Below are positions 912 through 10,437 of a stretch of 64,000 nt of DNA, in pieces. Below the pieces are notes generated by a model that did not search any database, was not told the DNA's origin, and was given only the letters and a program-made list of their open reading frames with translations. Numbering within the stretch: position 1 is the first letter of the stretch; the number at the start of each line of letters is the position of its first letter. Source of the DNA: an uncultured Verrucomicrobiota bacterium. GTDB taxonomy: Bacteria > Verrucomicrobiota > Verrucomicrobiia > Limisphaerales > CAIMTB01. A program made the position numbers and the translations under genes. The stretch spans positions 28,179 through 92,178 of the forward strand of contig CALNYA010000048.1 in NCBI GenBank assembly GCA_942490575.1, written 5' to 3'.

Positions 912-1823
912 ATGACGACATTGGAAGCGCCGGAGCGGGCGCGCCCGAGACTGCCGGAGTGGCTGCGTTTGCCCCTGCCCACGACGGCCGGGTATTCAAA
1001 GACGCGGAATCTCCTGCTGGATCTGAAGTTGCACACGGTGTGCGAGAGCGCCAAGTGCCCCAACCATTGGGAGTGCTGGAGCCGCGGGACGGCGACCTTC
1101 ATGATCGCGGGCGATCGTTGCACGCGGGCCTGCGGTTTCTGCGCGGTGAGCACGGCGAAACCCCTCGCGCTCGAGGAGGACGAACCCGCGCGGGTGGCCG
1201 AGGCGTCCGCTCGCATGGGGCTGAAACACGTGGTGATCACGGCGGTGGCCCGCGATGATCTGGCGGATGGGGGTGCGGGCCATTTCCGAAGGACGATCGA
1301 AGCCGTCCGGGCCCGGAATCCCGGGGTCGTGGTCGAGGTCCTGGTCCCTGATTTTCAGGACAAGGACGACGCGATCGACACCGTTTTGTCGGCGGAACCG
1401 GACATCTTCAACCACAACCTCGAGACCGTGCGCCGGTTGACGCCGTCGGTGCGCCATCGGGCGACCTACGACCGCTCGCTGGCCGTGCTCGGCAAAGTGA
1501 AGGAGAAACGGGGGGCCGCGATGCACACGAAATCGGGGATGATGCTGGGGTTGGGCGAGACGACCGACGAGGTTTTGGAGGCGATGCGGGACCTGCGGTC
1601 CTCGCGGTGCGACATCCTGACGTTGGGGCAGTACTTGCAGCCGACGCTGAAGCACTTGCCGGTGGTGGAGTTCGTGCCCCCGGCGCGCTTCGCGTGGTTC
1701 GGCGAACAGGCGGAGGCGATGGGTTTCGTCCATGTGGCCAGCGGACCGTTGGTGCGGAGTTCCTACCATGCGGACGAGTTCCAGGCCGACGCCGGTGTCC
1801 GACGGGAAAAGCCTTCATGCTGA
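912..1823 (+). CDS. lipA: Lipoyl synthase
   Basis: 303 aa. Carries the radical-SAM CxxxCxxC motif (CTRACGFC) and the N-terminal auxiliary-cluster motif CESAKCPNHWEC typical of LipA. Full length with an ATG start. Confidence 0.95.
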   Translation: MTTLEAPERARPRLPEWLRLPLPTTAGYSKTRNLLLDLKLHTVCESAKCPNHWECWSRGTATFMIAGDRCTRACGFCAVSTAKPLALEEDEPARVAEASARMGLKHVVITAVARDDLADGGAGHFRRTIEAVRARNPGVVVEVLVPDFQDKDDAIDTVLSAEPDIFNHNLETVRRLTPSVRHRATYDRSLAVLGKVKEKRGAAMHTKSGMMLGLGETTDEVLEAMRDLRSSRCDILTLGQYLQPTLKHLPVVEFVPPARFAWFGEQAEAMGFVHVASGPLVRSSYHADEFQADAGVRREKPSC

Positions 1824-3571
1824 CGCAGCTCGAGATTCGGGGATTCAAGGGGCTCGACGACGTCATCATCCCGCTGGGCGAGATGGTGGTCTTCGTCGGG
1901 CCCAACAACTCCGGCAAAACGACCGCGTTGCAGGCCTTGTCGCTTTGGGATCTGGGGTTCAGGAAGTGGGTCGAGAAGCGAAGGGACAGCCAGGCCCGGG
2001 AGCGCACTGGGGTGACTTTGAATCGGAGGGACCTTGTCGCCATCCCGGTGCCCGGAGCACGATTCCTCTGGCGAGACCTCCGGATACGGGAGTCGGAGCG
2101 CGAGAACGGCCGATCCAAGACCCACAATGTCGTTTTTGAAGTGCGGGTGGAGGGTGTCACGGATGGCGAAGCGTGGAGCGTTGGCATGGAGTTCGATTTC
2201 GCCAACGACGAGTCGTTCTATTGCCGGTCGAAGGACTGGCCTGAAGAGCGGGCTGCGCGGGATCGATTGATCGCGCTGGCGACGCGGTCGAGGGTGGCCT
2301 ATCTCCCGCCGATGTCCGGATTGGCGGCGCAAGAGTTCAGGAAAGAGGCCGGCGAAATCGGTGTTCTGATCGGGGAAGGGCGGACCGCGGAAGTATTGCG
2401 GAACCTCTGCCACCGTCTCCATAGCCGGGACGAGGCGGGAGGTTGGACCGCGCTTTGCAGCCACGTGGAGAGGCTGTTCCGGGTCCGGTTGCTGGCCCCC
2501 GAGTACCTCACTGAACGCAGCGAGATTCAGTTGCGGTACCAGCAAGGTGGGAACGATCTGGATTTGTCCTGTGCCGGGCGTGGTTTCCAGCAAACGCTCT
2601 TGCTCCTCGCATTTCTTTACGAAAACCCGAAGAGCGTCTTTCTCCTGGATGAACCCGATGCCCATCTGGAAGTGGTCCGGCAGCGTGAGATCTACTCTTT
2701 ACTCACGGAGGTCGCCGCGTCCCAGGGCAGCCAGATCATCGCGGCTTCGCATTCGGAAATCGTGTTGAACGAGGCCGCCGAGCGGGACGTTGTCGTTGTG
2801 TTCGTGGGCAAGCCGCACCGGATTGACTGCCGTCAACGCGGCCAAGTGGCGAAGGCCCTGCGCAGCATTCCTTTCGACCTGTACTATCTCGCCCAGCGAT
2901 ACGGATGGATCCTGTTTCTCGAAGGCGCGACCGATCTCGCCATCCTTCGATCGCTCGCGCGACAACTGCTTCCCGATCGCGCGAGTGGTTTCGATGAACT
3001 ACCGGTTCACTATGTGAAGAACAACATTCCAAACCTCGCCCGCGACGTTTTCCATGGACTGAAGGAGGCGGAGCCGGAGTTGCTGGGGCTGGCCCTTTTC
3101 GATAGGTTGCCGCACGTCCCGGAGGCGAGCCATGGGCTCGCCATTACGTCATGGAAACGGCGGGAGATAGAGAACTACATTGTGACGCGGGGAACTTTGG
3201 AGCGGTTCGCTCGTCACGATGTGCCGGATGATCTGTTCGGCCGCGCTGAAGCGGATCGGCGTGTGGCGGTGATGCGGGAGAGCGTCCTCGATATCGAGGG
3301 GGCGCTGGACAAACTGAACAAGCCGTCCCCTTGGTCGGCGGATATCAAGGTGACCGACGATTTCCTGAATCCCCTGTTCACGGCGTTTTACAAGCGGCTC
3401 GGATTTCCGCAATTGGCCTTCAAGCGCGACTACCATGTGCTGGCCGACCTATTGGATCCGACCGATCTCGCGCAGGATGATTTGGAAGAGATCCGTGGCG
3501 TCCTCCTTGAGATCGCCGCTCGGTCTGCCCTCAGTACGCATCGGCGACACATCGAACCGCCTCTCGCGTAG
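1818..3571 (+). CDS. ABC-type (AAA_15/21-like) ATPase fused to a DUF4435/TOPRIM-like C-terminal domain (PARIS-merged / OLD-like architecture)
   Basis: The ORF track gives 1607..3571, but the conserved N-terminus starts at ATG 1818 (MLTQLEIRGFKGL), overlapping the lipA stop (ATGCTGA). ATPase motifs are Walker A GPNNSGKT, signature-like LSCAGRGFQQ, Walker B VFLLDEPDAHLE and H-loop ASHSE. The C-terminal third carries ILFLEGATDLAIL and WKRREIENYI, resembling DUF4435-type TOPRIM motifs. About 584 aa. Confidence 0.8.
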
Positions 3572-3631: not shown

Positions 3632-4795
3632 CTACGGTCCGGGCAGGGGGGCGCCCACCCGCCGCAGATCGACGACGCACTCGACGTGCTGGGTCTGGGG
3701 GAACATGTCGAGGGGCGTGACGCGCTCGACGCGGTAGACGTCGTCCGCGCAGATCGCCTTCAGATCGCGGGCGAGCGTCGCCGGGTGGCAGGAGATGTAG
3801 AGGATCTGGGAGGGCCGCGTTTCGCGGAGGGCTTGGATGAACGGCGGCGCGCAGCCGACCCGCGGCGGGTCCGTGATGACCAGGGTATGGTCGGCGGGAA
3901 ATTTCTGAAGGAGGGCCGGCATCCATTGCTCCGCCGCGCCCGCCACGAATTCGCCGTTGGTGACTCCGCGTTGTTCCAGGTTGAGCCGCGCGGCCTTGAT
4001 GGCGGTCTTGTCGATTTCGACCCCGGCGAAGCGCTCGACGAGCGACGCGCATTCGAGGCCGAAGAATCCAATGCCGCAGTAGGCGTCGATGAGGAACCGC
4101 GCGCCGCTGGCGCGGACCGCCGTCCGGACCGCTTCGACGAGGGCGGGCAGGAGATGGAAATTGTTCTGGAAGAAGGAATCCTGGGGAAGCTGCCAGGCGT
4201 CGGGAGCGACGCGGAGCGTGACCTTGATGCCGCCTTTCGGCGGTGGGTTGGCGCGAACCGCGAGGAGTTGCTCGTTCAGGGCGGGTTCGGCGATGGGGCA
4301 GTGGTCGACGTCGACGACGAGGCGGTTGTCGTGCCGGATGAATCCCAGGATCAGTTTCTGGGTGAATTTGTCCCACTGCGTGCGAACCATGATGCGGTTG
4401 CGGTACGCGTAGGGTGACGGGCAGGGGACCACGGGATCGACGCGGAGTTCGGTGAACCCGCCGAGGCGCCGGAGGAGGTTGAGAATCTGGTCGTGCTTGA
4501 TCCGAAGCTGTGCCGGGTAGGCGACGTGCTGGTACTGGCAGCCGCCGCAGTCGCCGAAGTGCTTGCAGACGGGCTGGGAACGCTCGGGGGACGGCTGGAG
4601 GATCTCGACGATCCTTGCGCGGGCGTAGTTCTTCTTCACCTCGGTGAGTTCCACGAGGAGTTGCTCACCCGGGATGGCGAACGGGGTGAAGATGACGAAG
4701 TCGTCGACGCGCCCGACGGCGTCACCGCCGTAGGCGATGGAATCGACGGTGAGCCGGAGTCGGTGACCGACGGGGTGGGGCGCTTCTCCCTTCAT
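3632..4795 (-). CDS. rlmD: TRAM-domain 23S rRNA (uracil-C5)-methyltransferase, RlmD/RumA family
   Basis: Has a TRAM-like N-terminus, the Fe-S cysteine cluster CKHFGDCGGCQYQH, and a SAM methyltransferase core (FLIDAYCGIGFFG, VITDPPRVGC, ISCHPATLARD). The ORF track extends to 4888. I prefer ATG 4795 (MKGEAPHPVG) because the 31-aa extension is non-conserved and AT-richer. Confidence 0.8.
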   Translation of the reverse strand: MKGEAPHPVGHRLRLTVDSIAYGGDAVGRVDDFVIFTPFAIPGEQLLVELTEVKKNYARARIVEILQPSPERSQPVCKHFGDCGGCQYQHVAYPAQLRIKHDQILNLLRRLGGFTELRVDPVVPCPSPYAYRNRIMVRTQWDKFTQKLILGFIRHDNRLVVDVDHCPIAEPALNEQLLAVRANPPPKGGIKVTLRVAPDAWQLPQDSFFQNNFHLLPALVEAVRTAVRASGARFLIDAYCGIGFFGLECASLVERFAGVEIDKTAIKAARLNLEQRGVTNGEFVAGAAEQWMPALLQKFPADHTLVITDPPRVGCAPPFIQALRETRPSQILYISCHPATLARDLKAICADDVYRVERVTPLDMFPQTQHVECVVDLRRVGAPLPGP

Positions 4796-5024
4796 GGGCC
4801 GGGGTGCGGGAGTAAAACCGGAAAAGACGGACGCCCCAAGGAAAACCGAAATAAGGATCGAATAGGGGTCAGTTCTCATAATCGACAATGGCTCACGCCT
4901 GGATCACCCCACCGACGACACCCGTTCGGACGCTGGGCAAATTAACACAATACTTTGGTCTGACCCCTTTCTTGACCCCCTTTCTGACGGTTGCCGCGCG
5001 CGGGGTGGTTGCTACGGTGGTCCC

Positions 5025-6468: not shown

Positions 6469-8352
6469 CTAGGGTTCGACCAGGGTCACGCGCGCGTTGG
6501 ACGGGGTCCCTTCGAGGGTTTGTTCGTCGCCGTTGGGCCAGCGGATCCGGACCGTGTCGATTTTCGAGGCCTTGCCGAGCCCGAAGGTGACCGGAAGTTC
6601 GGATTGGGAGAGATAGCTCCGGGTGGGCATGACTTGGCGGGATTGGGTGATGCCTCCGGCGGTGAGGTGGATCCAAGCCCCGATCGCGTCCCGATTCGAG
6701 GCGTTGCCGCGGAGTTGGATCCGGACCCAGGCATGGCCGGTGGCCTGGTCGTTTCGAAGCAGGAGAGGGGATCCGTGGGCCTGAATCAGGAGGACATCGA
6801 GGTCGCCGTCCCCGTCGATGTCCGCCATCGCGGAGCCGCGGCCGACGATGGGCTTGAAGAGATCCGGGCCGGCGCTGTCGGCATTGACTTCGAGAAACCC
6901 GCCGCCCCGCGGCGTGGCGCCGGCGTTCCAGAACAATTGGGCCGGTTGGCGGTAGTGCTGGCTCCGCTGGATTTTCGAGATCTCCTCCTCGAGGTGGCCG
7001 TTCGCGGTGAGGATGTCGGGCCATCCGTCGAGGTCGTAGTCGAGGAAGAGGACGCCGAATTTCAGCGGAAGCCGACTGGCGGGTCCGATGCCCTCGGCGA
7101 TGGCTTCGTCGGCGAAGAGGCCGGCCCGACCCTGGGTGACGTAGAGCGCGGTCATTTCGTTGGCGAAATTGCCGATGGCCACCGCGATCGCGTCGTCGTT
7201 CCGGTGGCGGGCGATGTCGATTCCCATGGCGCCACGGGCGTTGCCCATGGTGTCGAACGCCAGGCCGAGCACGTCGCCCGATTCCCCGAAGGTCCCGTCG
7301 CGCCGGTTGGTGAAGACGAGGTTCTGGACGGTGTCGTTGGCGACAACCAGGTCGATCCAGCCGTCCCCGTCGAGATCGGCCGGCGCGACGCCGAGGGATT
7401 TCGCGGCGGGCACACCCGTGGACTGATTGCGGATCCGCACGCCGGATTCGGCGGAGATGTCGGTGAATCGGCCGTCGCCGTCGTTGCGATACAGGTACGG
7501 GAAGGAACCCTGGAAACTCATGGGCGGTCCGTAGGCGCGATTCTTGCCGTCGAGGGTGTAGCCGACTTGGAAATCGATCTCGCGCGACCAGCGGACGTAG
7601 TTCGCGACGAACAGGTCGAGGTCGCCGTCTCGGTCGATGTCGACGAACGCGGCGCTGGTGCTCCACTGATCGGGCGCGCCCGCCACGCCCGCGGCGGCCG
7701 TGATGTCCTGGAACTTGCCGCCGCCGAGGTTTCGGAAGAGTTGGTTCGCGCCCACGTTCGCGAGGAACAGATCGACCAGTCCGTCGTTGTCAAAGTCGCC
7801 GCAGGCCACACCCATGCCCTGGGAACCGACGTCGAGGCCGGATCCCAGGGTGCGTTCCTTGAAATGACCCGAGCCGTCGTTTTCGTAAAGCGCGTGGGTT
7901 TTCGGGGGTGCGGGTGGGGATTTCGCCCAGGACCAGGCGGAGCCGTTGATCAGAAAAACATCGGGATCGCCGTCGGCGTCGAAGTCGAAGAAGGCGCCGC
8001 CGCCGCCCATGGTTTCCGGGAGGAGTTTCTCGCCTTCCGCGCCATTGAAGCGATCGAACACAAGACCGGAGGCGGCGGTGACGTCGGTGAAACGAACGCC
8101 GGGGGGCCTGATGTCTCCGTGGGACGGCGCGACGGGAGAGGCGAGCGGCGTGATCTGGGTGGGGCCGGGGGCGGGTTGGCGATTGTACCAGAGCCCGAAG
8201 GCGACACCGGCGGTGGCGAGGAGCCCGAGGATGGCGACGGACCAGCGGGTGGCGCGGCCGATGACCGCATCGTCCTGATGGCCCAATTCGCCGGAGCTCT
8301 CGGACTGCTTGGAAGGGGTGGGTCGCGCTTCGCGTGGGTCGTCGGGGTTCAT
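6469..8352 (-). CDS. FG-GAP/VCBS repeat protein with ASPIC/UnbV C-terminal domain (CRTAC1 family)
   Basis: 627 aa with an N-terminal TM anchor. Repeated FG-GAP Ca-binding loops are present (GDFDNDGLVDLFLAN, VDIDRDGDLDLFVAN, ADLDGDGWIDLVVAN, LDYDLDGWPDILTAN, ADIDGDGDLDVLLI). The C-terminus is UnbV-like (RSYLSQSELPVTFGLG). Confidence 0.85.
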   Translation of the reverse strand: MNPDDPREARPTPSKQSESSGELGHQDDAVIGRATRWSVAILGLLATAGVAFGLWYNRQPAPGPTQITPLASPVAPSHGDIRPPGVRFTDVTAASGLVFDRFNGAEGEKLLPETMGGGGAFFDFDADGDPDVFLINGSAWSWAKSPPAPPKTHALYENDGSGHFKERTLGSGLDVGSQGMGVACGDFDNDGLVDLFLANVGANQLFRNLGGGKFQDITAAAGVAGAPDQWSTSAAFVDIDRDGDLDLFVANYVRWSREIDFQVGYTLDGKNRAYGPPMSFQGSFPYLYRNDGDGRFTDISAESGVRIRNQSTGVPAAKSLGVAPADLDGDGWIDLVVANDTVQNLVFTNRRDGTFGESGDVLGLAFDTMGNARGAMGIDIARHRNDDAIAVAIGNFANEMTALYVTQGRAGLFADEAIAEGIGPASRLPLKFGVLFLDYDLDGWPDILTANGHLEEEISKIQRSQHYRQPAQLFWNAGATPRGGGFLEVNADSAGPDLFKPIVGRGSAMADIDGDGDLDVLLIQAHGSPLLLRNDQATGHAWVRIQLRGNASNRDAIGAWIHLTAGGITQSRQVMPTRSYLSQSELPVTFGLGKASKIDTVRIRWPNGDEQTLEGTPSNARVTLVEP

Positions 8353-8450
8353 GGACGGAGCCTAGGTTGGGGCAATCGTGGGCGCTCTTCCAGTCGGCAG
8401 CGCGGGGATCAGGGTTGAAGGCTTGCGCTGGGACGGGAGACAGTCCTGGC

Positions 8451-9140
8451 ATGTTCAGCGGCATCGTGGAAGAGGCCGGTCGGATCGCTTCGGTGGAACG
8501 GACGCAATCCGGAATCGCGATGGCCGTGCACGCGCGCAAAGTAGGCGCCGGTGCGCGGGTGGGCGACAGCATTGCCGTGAACGGGTGTTGTCTCACTCTC
8601 GTGCGGTCGGGTCGGGCCGCGTCGGGCGGCGGTCGGACGCTGCACTTCGATCTTCTTGAGGAGACGTGGAAGAAGACCAGTTTCGCCGATCTGAAGGCGG
8701 GTGCGCTGGTCAACCTGGAGCGGTCGCTGCGGATGAGCGACCGGTTGGGGGGGCATTTCGTCACCGGCCATGTGGATGGCACGGGAAAGATCGTCCGTTG
8801 GGAGCGGTCGGGCGCGGACTGGGTCTTGGACGTGCGCCCGCCGGCCTCGATGATGCGTTACTTCCTCGACAAGGGTTCGGTGGCGATCGATGGCATCAGC
8901 CTGACGGTCGCCGAGGTTCGGCGGGAGGTTGAGATCCGGGCCTGGATCATCCCGCACACCCGGGCGGTGACCAACCTGGGGGAGCGGGTGGTCGGCGACC
9001 GGGTGAATCTGGAGGCGGACCTGCTCGGAAAATACGTGGAACGTCTTATTACTGCAGGTCGGGATTCCGGGGGAGCGTCCCGGCGGCTTCCTTCGAATAA
9101 GGCTCGATCACGCGGACGCGCATCGCGGGGATCTCAATGA
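8451..9140 (+). CDS. ribE: Riboflavin synthase (alpha chain)
   Basis: MFSGIVEEAGRI...GDSIAVNGCCLTLV and the second lumazine-binding repeat GSVAIDGISLTV are diagnostic. ATG 8451 was chosen inside track ORF 8334..9140. The 3' tail overlaps the convergent lipoprotein gene by 92 nt. Confidence 0.85.
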   Translation: MFSGIVEEAGRIASVERTQSGIAMAVHARKVGAGARVGDSIAVNGCCLTLVRSGRAASGGGRTLHFDLLEETWKKTSFADLKAGALVNLERSLRMSDRLGGHFVTGHVDGTGKIVRWERSGADWVLDVRPPASMMRYFLDKGSVAIDGISLTVAEVRREVEIRAWIIPHTRAVTNLGERVVGDRVNLEADLLGKYVERLITAGRDSGGASRRLPSNKARSRGRASRGSQ

Positions 9141-9321
9141 TCTGACCATTGCCGTCCTTGTAGACGTATTTGCTTTCGACGCGCTTGGGTTTGGAAGGGG
9201 TGATGATTTTGGCTCCGTTCGTCGTGGTGATGACGTACCGCCCGGAGCAACCCGTCAGGAGGGACAACGTGGCCAGGGCGATGAGGAGGGCCCGGGGTGC
9301 GCCGGTCTGCAAGAATCTCAT
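9049..9321 (-). CDS. Small lipoprotein, YgdI/YgdR (DUF903)-like
   Basis: 90 aa. Signal peptide with lipobox LLTGC, followed by SGRYVITTTNGAKI...YVYKDGNGQIIEI, which resembles E. coli YgdI/YgdR. Confidence 0.6.
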   Translation of the reverse strand: MRFLQTGAPRALLIALATLSLLTGCSGRYVITTTNGAKIITPSKPKRVESKYVYKDGNGQIIEIPAMRVRVIEPYSKEAAGTLPRNPDLQ

Positions 9322-9473
9322 GGGCGCATGATTGCGCCTTGGGTCGGGCGGATCTCAATTCCAAAACCCCGCCTGATCGATTCAGCGGGAAGGGGGAAAT
9401 CGACGGGGGAGCCGGCGCGACCGATGTGCCGCCGACTTTCAGTCGGCTTGGGTGTCGGGGAGGGAAGAAAAGT

Positions 9474-9558
9474 TGGTGCGCACGGCAGGACTTGAACCTG
9501 CACGCCTTGCGGCACTACCACCTCAAAGTAGCGCGTCTGCCAATTCCGCCACGTGCGC
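9474..9558 (-). tRNA. tRNA-Leu (anticodon GAG), type II with long variable arm, CCA encoded
   Basis: Reverse complement is GCGCACGTGGCGGAATTGGCAGACGCGCTACTTTGAGGTGGTAGTGCCGCAAGGCGTGCAGGTTCAAGTCCTGCCGTGCGCACCA. It has a 7-bp acceptor stem, anticodon stem CTACT/GGTAG with loop TTGAGGT, T-loop GGTTCAAGTCC and a 3' CCA. Confidence 0.9.
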
Positions 9559-9678
9559 GACCGGCCCGCTTGTTATGCGGTGGCGCGCTGGGTGCATGCA
9601 AGCGGGTTTTCGGAATGGAAGTTTCGACCGGGGAGGATTCATGCTCGACTGCGTCATCCGAATCCCATCCAAACACCT

Positions 9679-10437
9679 ATGAACCCGTTTTCTCCAACCC
9701 GTTCCTTGTTCCTGGGCCACCGTGGACACTCCTTTGCTATCCGAGCCGTGATGAGCTGCCTTCTGGCCGGGGCCTGCCTTGTCGCGCGGGGCGCGGGCAA
9801 GGAACCCCCCGTCGTGACACCCGGCTCGTCCTTCAGCCACGGCGCGCCGCCCCCGGCGGACGCCATCGTGTTGTTTGACGGCCGGGACCTGGATGCATGG
9901 CGGTCCAAGGGCGACAAGCCCGCCGGTTGGAAGGTCGAGAACGGTTACGCCGAAGTCCGGAGCGGCGGGATTTTCACCAAAGAGGAGTTCGGCGACATCC
10001 AGTTGCACATCGAATGGGCGTCGCCGTCGGTGGTGACGGGCAAGGACCAGGGTCGGGGGAACAGCGGCGTGTATTTCCAGGGGCGCTATGAGATCCAGGT
10101 GCTGGATTCCTTCGAGAACCCGACCTACCCGGACGGCCAGGCCGGCTCCTTCTATGGCAACGCGGCGCCGTTGGTGAACGCCTCCCGGAAGCCAGGGGAA
10201 TGGCAGACCTACGATATCGTGTTTCATGCCCCGAAGCTGGATTCGGACGGCAAGGTGGTTCCCGGATCGTTCACCGTGTTTCACAACGGCGTCCTGGTGC
10301 AGGATCACGTGCCGATCAAAGGCACCGCGACCACCGCCGCGCCCGCCCAGGGTGTGGTGCCGATGGGGCAGTTGCACTTGCAGGATCATGGCAACCCGGT
10401 GCGCTATCGGAACATCTGGCTGCGCAAACTGAACTGA
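9679..10437 (+). CDS. DUF1080 (3-keto-disaccharide hydrolase-like) domain protein, secreted
   Basis: Start taken at ATG 9679 (MNPFSPTRS) within ORF 9553..10437. Has a signal peptide and the family-typical C-terminus [19 protein letters not shown]. Confidence 0.8.

Follow-up and report, generated by a model that had tools for sequence, protein, structure and literature searches.

A single-chain ATPase–Toprim gene behind lipA in a Limisphaerales genome, a likely defence gene of the OLD/PARIS superfamily

What is a gene for an ATPase–Toprim protein doing directly behind lipA, the housekeeping gene of lipoyl synthase? This question is raised by a stretch of 64,000 nucleotides (nt) from an uncultured Verrucomicrobiota bacterium of the Limisphaerales (contig CALNYA010000048.1), hereafter called the window, in which an open reading frame (ORF) of 584 amino acids (aa), P0001, lies between lipA and a gene for an RNA methyltransferase. 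ATPase–Toprim proteins (OLD, Gabija, PARIS, retron effectors) represent a major theme in anti-phage immunity, and a first-pass annotation of this DNA had read the gene as a merged-PARIS or OLD-like defence gene. Our data uphold the superfamily architecture proposed in that reading; the product of the gene, hereafter the window protein, scores below the DUF4435 model that delimits PARIS proper. All together, the gene product is likely to be a Toprim nuclease of the OLD/PARIS superfamily that is gated by an ATPase within one and the same chain and, by analogy with the known systems, would serve abortive-infection-type defence. In its effector domain it comes nearest to AriB, and in the layout of the whole chain to merged PARIS and class 1 OLD.

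Starting from the N-terminal half of the protein, every motif quoted earlier for a complete ATP-binding cassette (ABC) ATPase was located in the translation of the 584-aa ORF, which is thus confirmed (Table 1). The motifs are invariant or nearly so in 29 close and 30 distant homologues. In Pfam, the window protein scored 70.2 bits with AAA_15 (cut-off 32.1) and 66.9 bits with AAA_21 (cut-off 27); SMC_N was also above its gathering score, and the ATPase head is similar to those of RecF and Rad50. Since AAA_15, AAA_21 and SMC_N all pass their gathering scores and the motifs are conserved in homologues, we do not regard the motifs as chance occurrences. The rule used to recognise the ATPase of PARIS, namely AAA_15 / AAA_21 above the Pfam thresholds (PMC9122126), holds for the window protein. 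When a profile of 29 homologues was compared with the PDB, the best sequence match was the OLD protein of Thermus scotoductus (Ts OLD, 6p74), in the ATPase segments only. AlphaFold2 modelled the whole protein with a mean predicted local distance difference test (pLDDT) of 79, and the full-length fold matches were the ABC-type heads of PtuA, Ts OLD, GajA and Rad50/SMC (structural maintenance of chromosomes), together with a chain of the AriA–AriB complex. In conclusion, the N-terminal domain, spanning residues 1 to ~335, is an ABC/SMC-type ATPase.

Some further matches were set aside. Specifically, the PADLOC 'AriA' models PDLC02979 and PDLC02980 are generic and were not counted as PARIS-specific, because their lengths and match coordinates are the same as those of Pfam AAA_15 and AAA_21, while a match to MAD3 of the MADS system was rejected at 47.9 bits against an NCBIfam cut-off of 420.

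Within the ATPase domain, the most conserved motif of the family is [AV][FY]LPPMSGL together with the invariant E173 a few residues further on (positions 2300-2335, residues 162-173). The same stretch received the lowest AlphaFold confidence and was modelled as disordered (pLDDT 30-36, residues 167-189); two helices, 189-203 and 209-221, are placed by the model between the ATPase lobes, beside this low-confidence loop; class 1 OLD nucleases have a helical dimerisation domain inserted in their ATPase, to which these helices may correspond. The conserved stretch itself might be mobile and resemble a Q-loop, or it might bind a partner.

The C-terminal domain, residues ~360-575, is most likely a Toprim domain of the AriB/DUF4435 type followed by a helical extension. 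The PADLOC AriAB model (694 positions) matched the whole protein with an E-value of 2e-19 and 67.7 bits, the best stretch pairing residues 272-455 with model positions 331-521, and gave a weak match to the C-terminus alone (12.6 bits, E 0.0095). The signal becomes clearer in the family: among 30 relatives of 29-51% identity whose C-termini were scanned, 13 matched AriAB (best E 4e-7) and 6 matched AriB (best E 1e-8). DUF4435 reached 26.4 bits in one relative (P0241), just under the gathering score of 27, and 21.1 bits in another (P0227), and PF14491, the Pfam entry of DUF4435, is on record for three (P0241, P0391 and P0398). The OLD-like Toprim model PF20469 gave E-values of 0.036-0.05 at best, in one or two of the 30.

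Modelled separately, residues 336-584 folded with a pLDDT of 89 and a predicted template modelling score (pTM) of 0.85. The order of elements, beta-alpha-beta-alpha-beta-beta, is that of a Toprim domain; strand 1 leads directly into E369, and strand 3 into D429. The sole PDB fold match below an E-value of 0.001 was a PARIS chain, 8ux9_A (E 8.8e-4, probability 0.97), followed by 8v46_D (E 4e-3), GajA and, in fourth place, the C-terminal region of the Xanthomonas OLD protein (6njx, E 0.17); a library of viral structures returned no match below E 0.2. Both PARIS chains are taken as AriB from their length of ~305 residues. Therefore, the earlier proposal of an ABC ATPase and a DUF4435-type Toprim domain in one chain is supported by the family profiles and by the fold match, and the structural comparison suggested at that stage, with AriA/AriB and OLD, places AriB before GajA and OLD for the C-terminal part.

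In AriB, the acidic residues of the Toprim site are E26, D30, D88, E90 and E122 (Burman 2024, PMC11464382). When the window protein is mapped onto them by motif order and spacing rather than by structural superposition, four of the five appear to be kept. E369, which ends strand beta-1, and D373 are spaced exactly as E26-x3-D30; D429, which closes strand beta-3, pairs with D88; and one of the glutamates of the EIENY motif, E450 or E452, is probably the counterpart of E122, as judged from the sequence. The place of E90 is taken by L431. Specifically, E369, D373, D429, E450, E452, W446, N453 and Y454 are invariant or nearly so down to ~30% identity, and at the position equivalent to E90 the motif reads FDR followed by L, I or F in 83/83 close-clade loci in which it is readable, with DRD, DND, DSD or DGD retained in distant relatives. 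The first-pass annotation was therefore correct in taking FDRL in place of DxD as the mark of a divergent subtype: the trait is clade-wide and does not reflect decay of the window copy. As for the conserved helical region that follows (Table 1), the corresponding DUF4435 part of AriB serves dimerisation (PMC11464382).

Table 1. Features of the ATPase–Toprim gene and its neighbours (positions in the window; residues of the window protein)
Feature	Motif	Residues	Position	Strand	Remarks
lipA (lipoyl synthase)			912..1823	+	88% identical to Limisphaerales LipA; upstream housekeeping gene
ATPase–Toprim gene (P0001)			1817..3571	+	584 aa
Start/stop overlap, 7 nt	ATGCTGA		1817..1823	+	ATG of the gene overlaps the lipA TGA
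Walker A	GPNNSGKT	28-35	1898..1921	+	G28, N31, K34 invariant at ~30% identity
Family-specific motif	YLPPMSGL	162-169	2300..2323	+	followed by invariant E173
ABC signature region	LSCAGRGFQQ	250-259	2564..2593	+	
Walker B / D-loop	VFLLDEPDAHLE	274-285	2636..2671	+	
H-loop	ASHSE	310-314	2744..2758	+	
Toprim motif 1	ILFLEGATDLAIL	365-377	2909..2947	+	contains LEGATD
Toprim motif 2	LALFDRL		3089..3109	+	FDRL = residues 428-431
EIENY motif	WKRREIENYI	446-455	3152..3181	+	E450, E452, Y454 invariant
C-terminal helical region	DDLFG, PWSxDIKxTDDFL, KRDYHxLA		3227..3571	+	conserved, confidently modelled
TRAM/tRNA-U5-type RNA methyltransferase gene			3632..4888	-	convergent, downstream

The boundaries of the gene could be fixed with the help of its homologues. 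The end at 3571 on the plus strand stands as first given, and the start, placed before at 1818, was one base late: the ATG occupies 1817-1819 and the lipA stop codon TGA 1821-1823, so that the overlap ATGCTGA reported earlier is confirmed at 1817-1823. An in-frame GTG upstream, at 1607, was ruled out as start, since the ATG is where all homologues start, with the residues MLT or MIT. The position between lipA and an rRNA-methyltransferase-type gene is likewise confirmed, the downstream gene being a convergent one of the TRAM/tRNA-U5 type.

The next question was whether the gene belongs to lipA or is an accessory to it. Three related contigs, with LipA 88%, 88% and 84% identical, show the same gene order (an ACT-domain gene, lipA, the convergent methyltransferase gene, HAD-NUDIX, folB, ASPIC/UnbV and riboflavin synthase) with the ATPase–Toprim gene missing. 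In the contig of the closest homologue (L001, LipA 86%), the gene is present after lipA with the same 7-nt overlap. This lipA context is limited to the closest homologue, the other homologues lying in unrelated contexts. Universal synteny with lipA, which according to the first-pass annotation would have argued for a core role, is thus not what is found, given that the nearest lipA relatives are without the gene.

In the two contigs with LipA at 88%, both from Limisphaerales metagenome-assembled genomes (L115:3853-3994 and L116:7901-8042), two pieces of the gene are still present in the 134-nt spacer that follows lipA. One, ATGCTGACCCAACTCG, agrees with the beginning of the gene (its first 16 nt, window 1817-1832) at 14 of 16 positions, and the other, TTGGATCCGACGGATCTC, matches window 3452-3469 at 17 of 18; the score of TTGGATCCGACGGATCTC was 31, compared to 19.2 +/- 2.2 (maximum 26) in 200 shuffles. 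In these genomes, the stop codon of lipA is still the TGA inside ATGCTGA. The pieces look like the scar of a ~1.6-kb deletion, and therefore an ancestor would have acquired the gene, which that branch would subsequently have lost. In addition, the guanine–cytosine (GC) fraction of the gene is ~0.60-0.62, against 0.66-0.68 in the flanks. Since close relatives keep the lipA synteny without the gene, two of them with an apparent scar, we conclude that the gene is accessory and not a core partner of lipA.

In L001 the locus carries an extra ORF of 729 aa (7984-10173), located between the ATPase–Toprim and the methyltransferase genes, which has no Pfam or PADLOC match and is absent from the window; the methyltransferase gene of this contig was called at 181 aa only.

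Searches beyond the close relatives revealed a large family. More than 8,000 clusters at 90% identity contain full-length matches that are 52-82% identical to the window protein. At the 50% level there were 408 representatives at E<=1e-30, the full-length ones being mostly ~550-600 aa long. With one genome per species (185,579 species), at least 518 GTDB species carry copies 50-55% identical to the query. The carriers belong to Verrucomicrobiota, Planctomycetota, Acidobacteriota, Chloroflexota, several proteobacterial classes, Nitrospinota, Bacteroidota, Gemmatimonadota and Omnitrophota, and include one metagenome-assembled genome labelled Bathyarchaeota. In the maximum-likelihood gene tree the phyla are thoroughly mixed, discordant with the taxonomy. 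The members of the family reside on the chromosomes of uncultured bacteria and hardly occur in phage collections; PARIS, unlike this family, is often carried by phages and satellites. Taken as a whole, the family is a large branch of the known PARIS/OLD group that has no name of its own and has spread horizontally, and as such it is only moderately new. What makes the branch stand out is that it falls below the Pfam models of DUF4435 and of the OLD Toprim, and that uncultured bacteria from soil and water, in many phyla, carry it in great abundance; the window copy is one more member, useful for annotation and unsurprising to a specialist.

One copy deserves separate mention. A 1.0-Mb contig labelled Candidatus Bathyarchaeota (L056) carries a full-length copy, 51% identical to the window protein, which groups with a copy from Phycisphaerales in the gene tree; either a transfer across domains or a mislabelled bin would account for it.

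By comparing the surroundings of the gene in different genomes, a recurrent arrangement was observed. In 10/80 GTDB loci the gene is located, on one strand, between a ResIII-type gene (res) and the methyltransferase gene (mod) of a type III restriction–modification (R-M) system (L014, L020, L021, L029, L033, L036, L037, L048, L076 and L085), and in 15/80 it is flanked by at least one of the two, several of those contigs ending nearby. The res genes encode ~1,000 aa and the mod genes ~850-900 aa, with frequent overlaps or gaps of a few bases. The Res proteins match Pfam ResIII and, weakly, the PADLOC REase_III and known res models (~31-45 bits), whereas the Mod proteins match Pfam N6_N4_Mtase and one particular PADLOC MTase_III model at 820-890 bits (best 886). 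Such R-M-embedded loci turn up at scattered places in two of the tree's three main clades, and the sister group of the window copy is one of these places; the arrangement is found neither at the window nor in its close relative L001. When the flanking ORFs of 89 loci were clustered all against all as a search for a conserved partner, only res and mod recurred. One locus has a SNF2/RapA-like helicase gene upstream and the same type of methyltransferase gene downstream, and the other large adjacent ORFs comprise an isoleucyl-tRNA synthetase, an example of the housekeeping genes found as neighbours elsewhere, and one without a PDB relative. For the window copy, the earlier statement that no partner gene is present is consistent with these data, in which none is conserved across loci.

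The 7-nt overlap was also followed through the family and rejected as a family-wide feature, since it occurs in only 8 of 67 loci, counting 66 related ones and the window, itself one of the eight (the others being L001, L007, L020, L033, L045, L073 and L081). The genes upstream are unrelated to each other: lipA, yafQ, res and others. The overlap arises because the conserved MLT start (ATG YTG ACN) holds an out-of-frame TGA, and it seems that the gene lands promoterless behind other genes and supplies their stop codon.

An example of such a landing site is L007:4491-6007, where the copy lies directly after a relB/yafQ toxin–antitoxin pair (relBE-type), with a 7-nt overlap with yafQ, and also adjoins a second such pair, mazE/pemK (mazEF-type), and a transposase gene, the whole forming a small accessory islet.

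The domain architecture, the retained catalytic-type residues, the wide spread of the family, its link with R-M systems and the accessory nature of the gene are borne out by the data; from PARIS, OLD and Gabija we infer a defence role for the window protein, a division of labour between sensor and effector, and the kind of trigger and target to be expected. As sensor or switch, the ATPase module would keep the Toprim nuclease inactive, and an infection-associated cue would lift this restraint. The metal-dependent nuclease, with E369, D373, D429 and E450 or E452 as its likely metal ligands, would then cut nucleic acid, either tRNA as AriB does or DNA as OLD and GajA do, and thereby abort phage growth. 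As for the gene, it would have been acquired horizontally and inserted after lipA in one Limisphaerales lineage, where it would be expressed by translational coupling to lipA, and the window copy would work without a dedicated partner in its genome.

Several observations weigh against an ATPase-gated Toprim nuclease with a defence role. Pfam DUF4435 (cut-off 27 bits) was unmatched by the whole window protein, and the C-terminus scanned alone at E<=10 gave no match to either DUF4435 or OLD-like_TOPRIM (PF20469). Of the profile search proposed in the first-pass annotation, the AAA_15/AAA_21 half was thus positive, above the Pfam cut-offs, and the DUF4435/Toprim half negative for the window protein itself; the lack of such a match, which that annotation had named as a reason to give up its assignment, is formally the case for this protein and is overturned at the level of the family and of the fold. 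The template modelling (TM) scores of the fold matches are low, 0.21-0.36 overall and 0.21-0.30 for the PARIS chains, and three C-terminal profiles, one each for the close clade (A2), for the family at large (A4) and for a DxD-bearing subclade (A5), retrieved no Toprim protein from the PDB and hence no residue-level alignment to AriB. The neighbours of the gene in the window are housekeeping genes; PLSDB plasmids and INPHARED phages contained no match at E<=1e-10, and IMG/VR only two close ones; and the literature searched held no experimental work on any family member. Finally, since L, I or F replaces the second acidic residue of DxD/DxE in all 83 readable close-clade loci, the metal site may differ from that of AriB or be weakened.

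If the metal site were lost altogether, the Toprim domain would no longer be a nuclease and the protein would act through its ATPase alone, for instance by binding and sequestering a phage or host factor. A precedent for this is the E. coli class 1 OLD protein YbjD, for which a dispensable Toprim domain and an essential ATPase are reported (PMC13261556), and the presence of FDR[L/I/F] in all 83 readable close-clade loci, against DRD/DND/DSD in distant relatives, would fit such a loss. We nevertheless consider it unlikely, because the retention of E369, D373, D429, E450, E452, N453 and Y454 down to ~30% identity points to a maintained active site, in which the two EIENY glutamates could provide the missing ligand. 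Even less probable is a selfish, addiction-type ATPase-gated nuclease that persists by harming cells which lose the gene or its restraint, with no anti-phage benefit: horizontal spread, promoterless insertion directly behind unrelated genes and the one copy placed after relB/yafQ with the same 7-nt overlap would suit it, but among the neighbours res and mod alone recur, with no conserved antitoxin-like partner, and the clean loss in sister genomes argues against strong addiction. A further reading, and a highly improbable one, is that the protein is a genome-maintenance ATPase–nuclease of the RecF/SbcC/Rad50 kind, tied as a housekeeping function to lipA or to the RNA methyltransferase. Its absence from the closest lipA relatives with the same synteny, homologues in unrelated contexts, a patchy distribution (at least 518 matches among 185,579 species), a gene tree discordant with taxonomy and the recurrent R-M embedding all speak against such a role, although translational coupling to lipA, kept in the closest relative, the housekeeping neighbours, the likeness of the ATPase head to SMC_N, RecF and Rad50, and the high sequence conservation across the family could be cited in its favour.

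An ATPase-gated Toprim nuclease with a defence role thus being the preferred reading, we compared the window protein with the known systems. Merged PARIS, or AriAB (OLD class 4; PMC9122126, PMC11464382), likewise joins an AAA_15/AAA_21 ATPase to an AriB/DUF4435-type Toprim domain; single-gene fusions are known there too, and the catalytic-type residues E-x3-D, D and E come in the same order and spacing. In addition, the C-terminus of the window protein has its best fold match in a PARIS chain, and members of its family match the AriB and AriAB profiles. The differences are that the window protein has 584 aa against the 694 positions of the AriAB model, which is matched only in part, that it scores below Pfam DUF4435 and carries Leu at the equivalent of E90, and that no long coiled-coil insertions are visible in the model of its ATPase. 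PARIS has Ocr as trigger and tRNA-Lys as target; unlike PARIS, the family of the window protein is hardly represented in collections of phages, satellites and plasmids. The definition of PARIS makes use of DUF4435 (Rousset 2022, PMC9122126), and because this domain goes unrecognised in the window protein, one catalytic residue differs and the ecology differs, we have not filed it as a member of PARIS.

Class 1 OLD proteins (P2 Old, Ts OLD 6P74, V. cholerae OLD and E. coli YbjD) are, like the window protein, stand-alone chains of similar size, with an N-terminal ABC ATPase, a C-terminal Toprim domain and no adjacent helicase, and the rule for this class, an isolated ATPase–Toprim gene with no downstream UvrD-like helicase gene (PMC7049728), describes the window locus. 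Ts OLD gives the best PDB sequence match, confined to the ATPase part, and ranks high among the fold matches of the full-length protein. In contrast to class 1 OLD, the window protein shows no PF20469, has a different motif set (LEGxTD, FDRL, REIENY), and by C-terminal fold and profiles is placed with AriB/DUF4435 first and OLD second. Gabija GajA (OLD class 2 in the numbering of PMC11464382) has the same order of ATPase and Toprim in one chain and appears in both fold searches and among the PADLOC matches, with weak scores (E 1e-13 or worse) that concern mainly the ATPase. None of the flanking ORFs is a GajB/UvrD-like helicase gene, and across the 89 loci no helicase partner recurs besides res.

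A functional analogy, and no more than that, can be drawn with the anticodon nucleases PrrC and RloC, in which an ABC-type ATPase–nuclease fusion sits inside an R-M operon. PrrC guards the R-M enzyme EcoprrI and fires when a phage peptide inhibits EcoprrI (cited in PMC9122126), and the analogy with a PrrC-like guard has already been drawn for PARIS itself (PMC9122126). The nuclease domain of PrrC/RloC is unrelated to that of the window protein, whose gene has no R-M neighbours, and whereas PrrC and RloC belong to type Ic hsd loci, the R-M embedding of the present family is with type III-like res/mod pairs. By this analogy, the placement within R-M loci points to a guard of restriction in the manner of PrrC or PARIS, a role that might hypothetically extend to the orphan copy in the window.

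A more far-reaching idea, which we put forward tentatively and regard as doubtful, is that the whole family is an 'anti-anti-restriction' guard, normally housed inside type III R-M operons in the order res, guard, mod. Such a single-chain guard would monitor the R-M enzyme or sense anti-restriction proteins of phages, much as Ocr is sensed by PARIS and Stp by PrrC, and would act through a Toprim nuclease with a non-canonical metal site, in which a lone Asp stands for DxD and is joined by the EIE glutamates; orphans such as the copy behind lipA would then be escaped, still-working guards. The res–gene–mod arrangement is in any case the most useful lead offered by these data, since it makes a guard function testable, as a back-up that fires when restriction is disabled. 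The altered metal-binding motif, for its part, would show how far the site of a Toprim nuclease can vary.

Five prophage-like IMG/VR contigs (L094, L096, L098, L099 and L100) encode fused ATPase–Toprim proteins of 597-599 aa, ~24% identical to the window protein. They gave no match to DUF4435 and only sub-threshold ones to DUF3226. Their motifs, AYLPPFAG, VEGxSD, RDRDD and RRRHIENY, follow the same order as in the window protein, with DRDD at the second Toprim motif, which suggests that a wider set of single-chain fusions lies between the current Pfam Toprim models.

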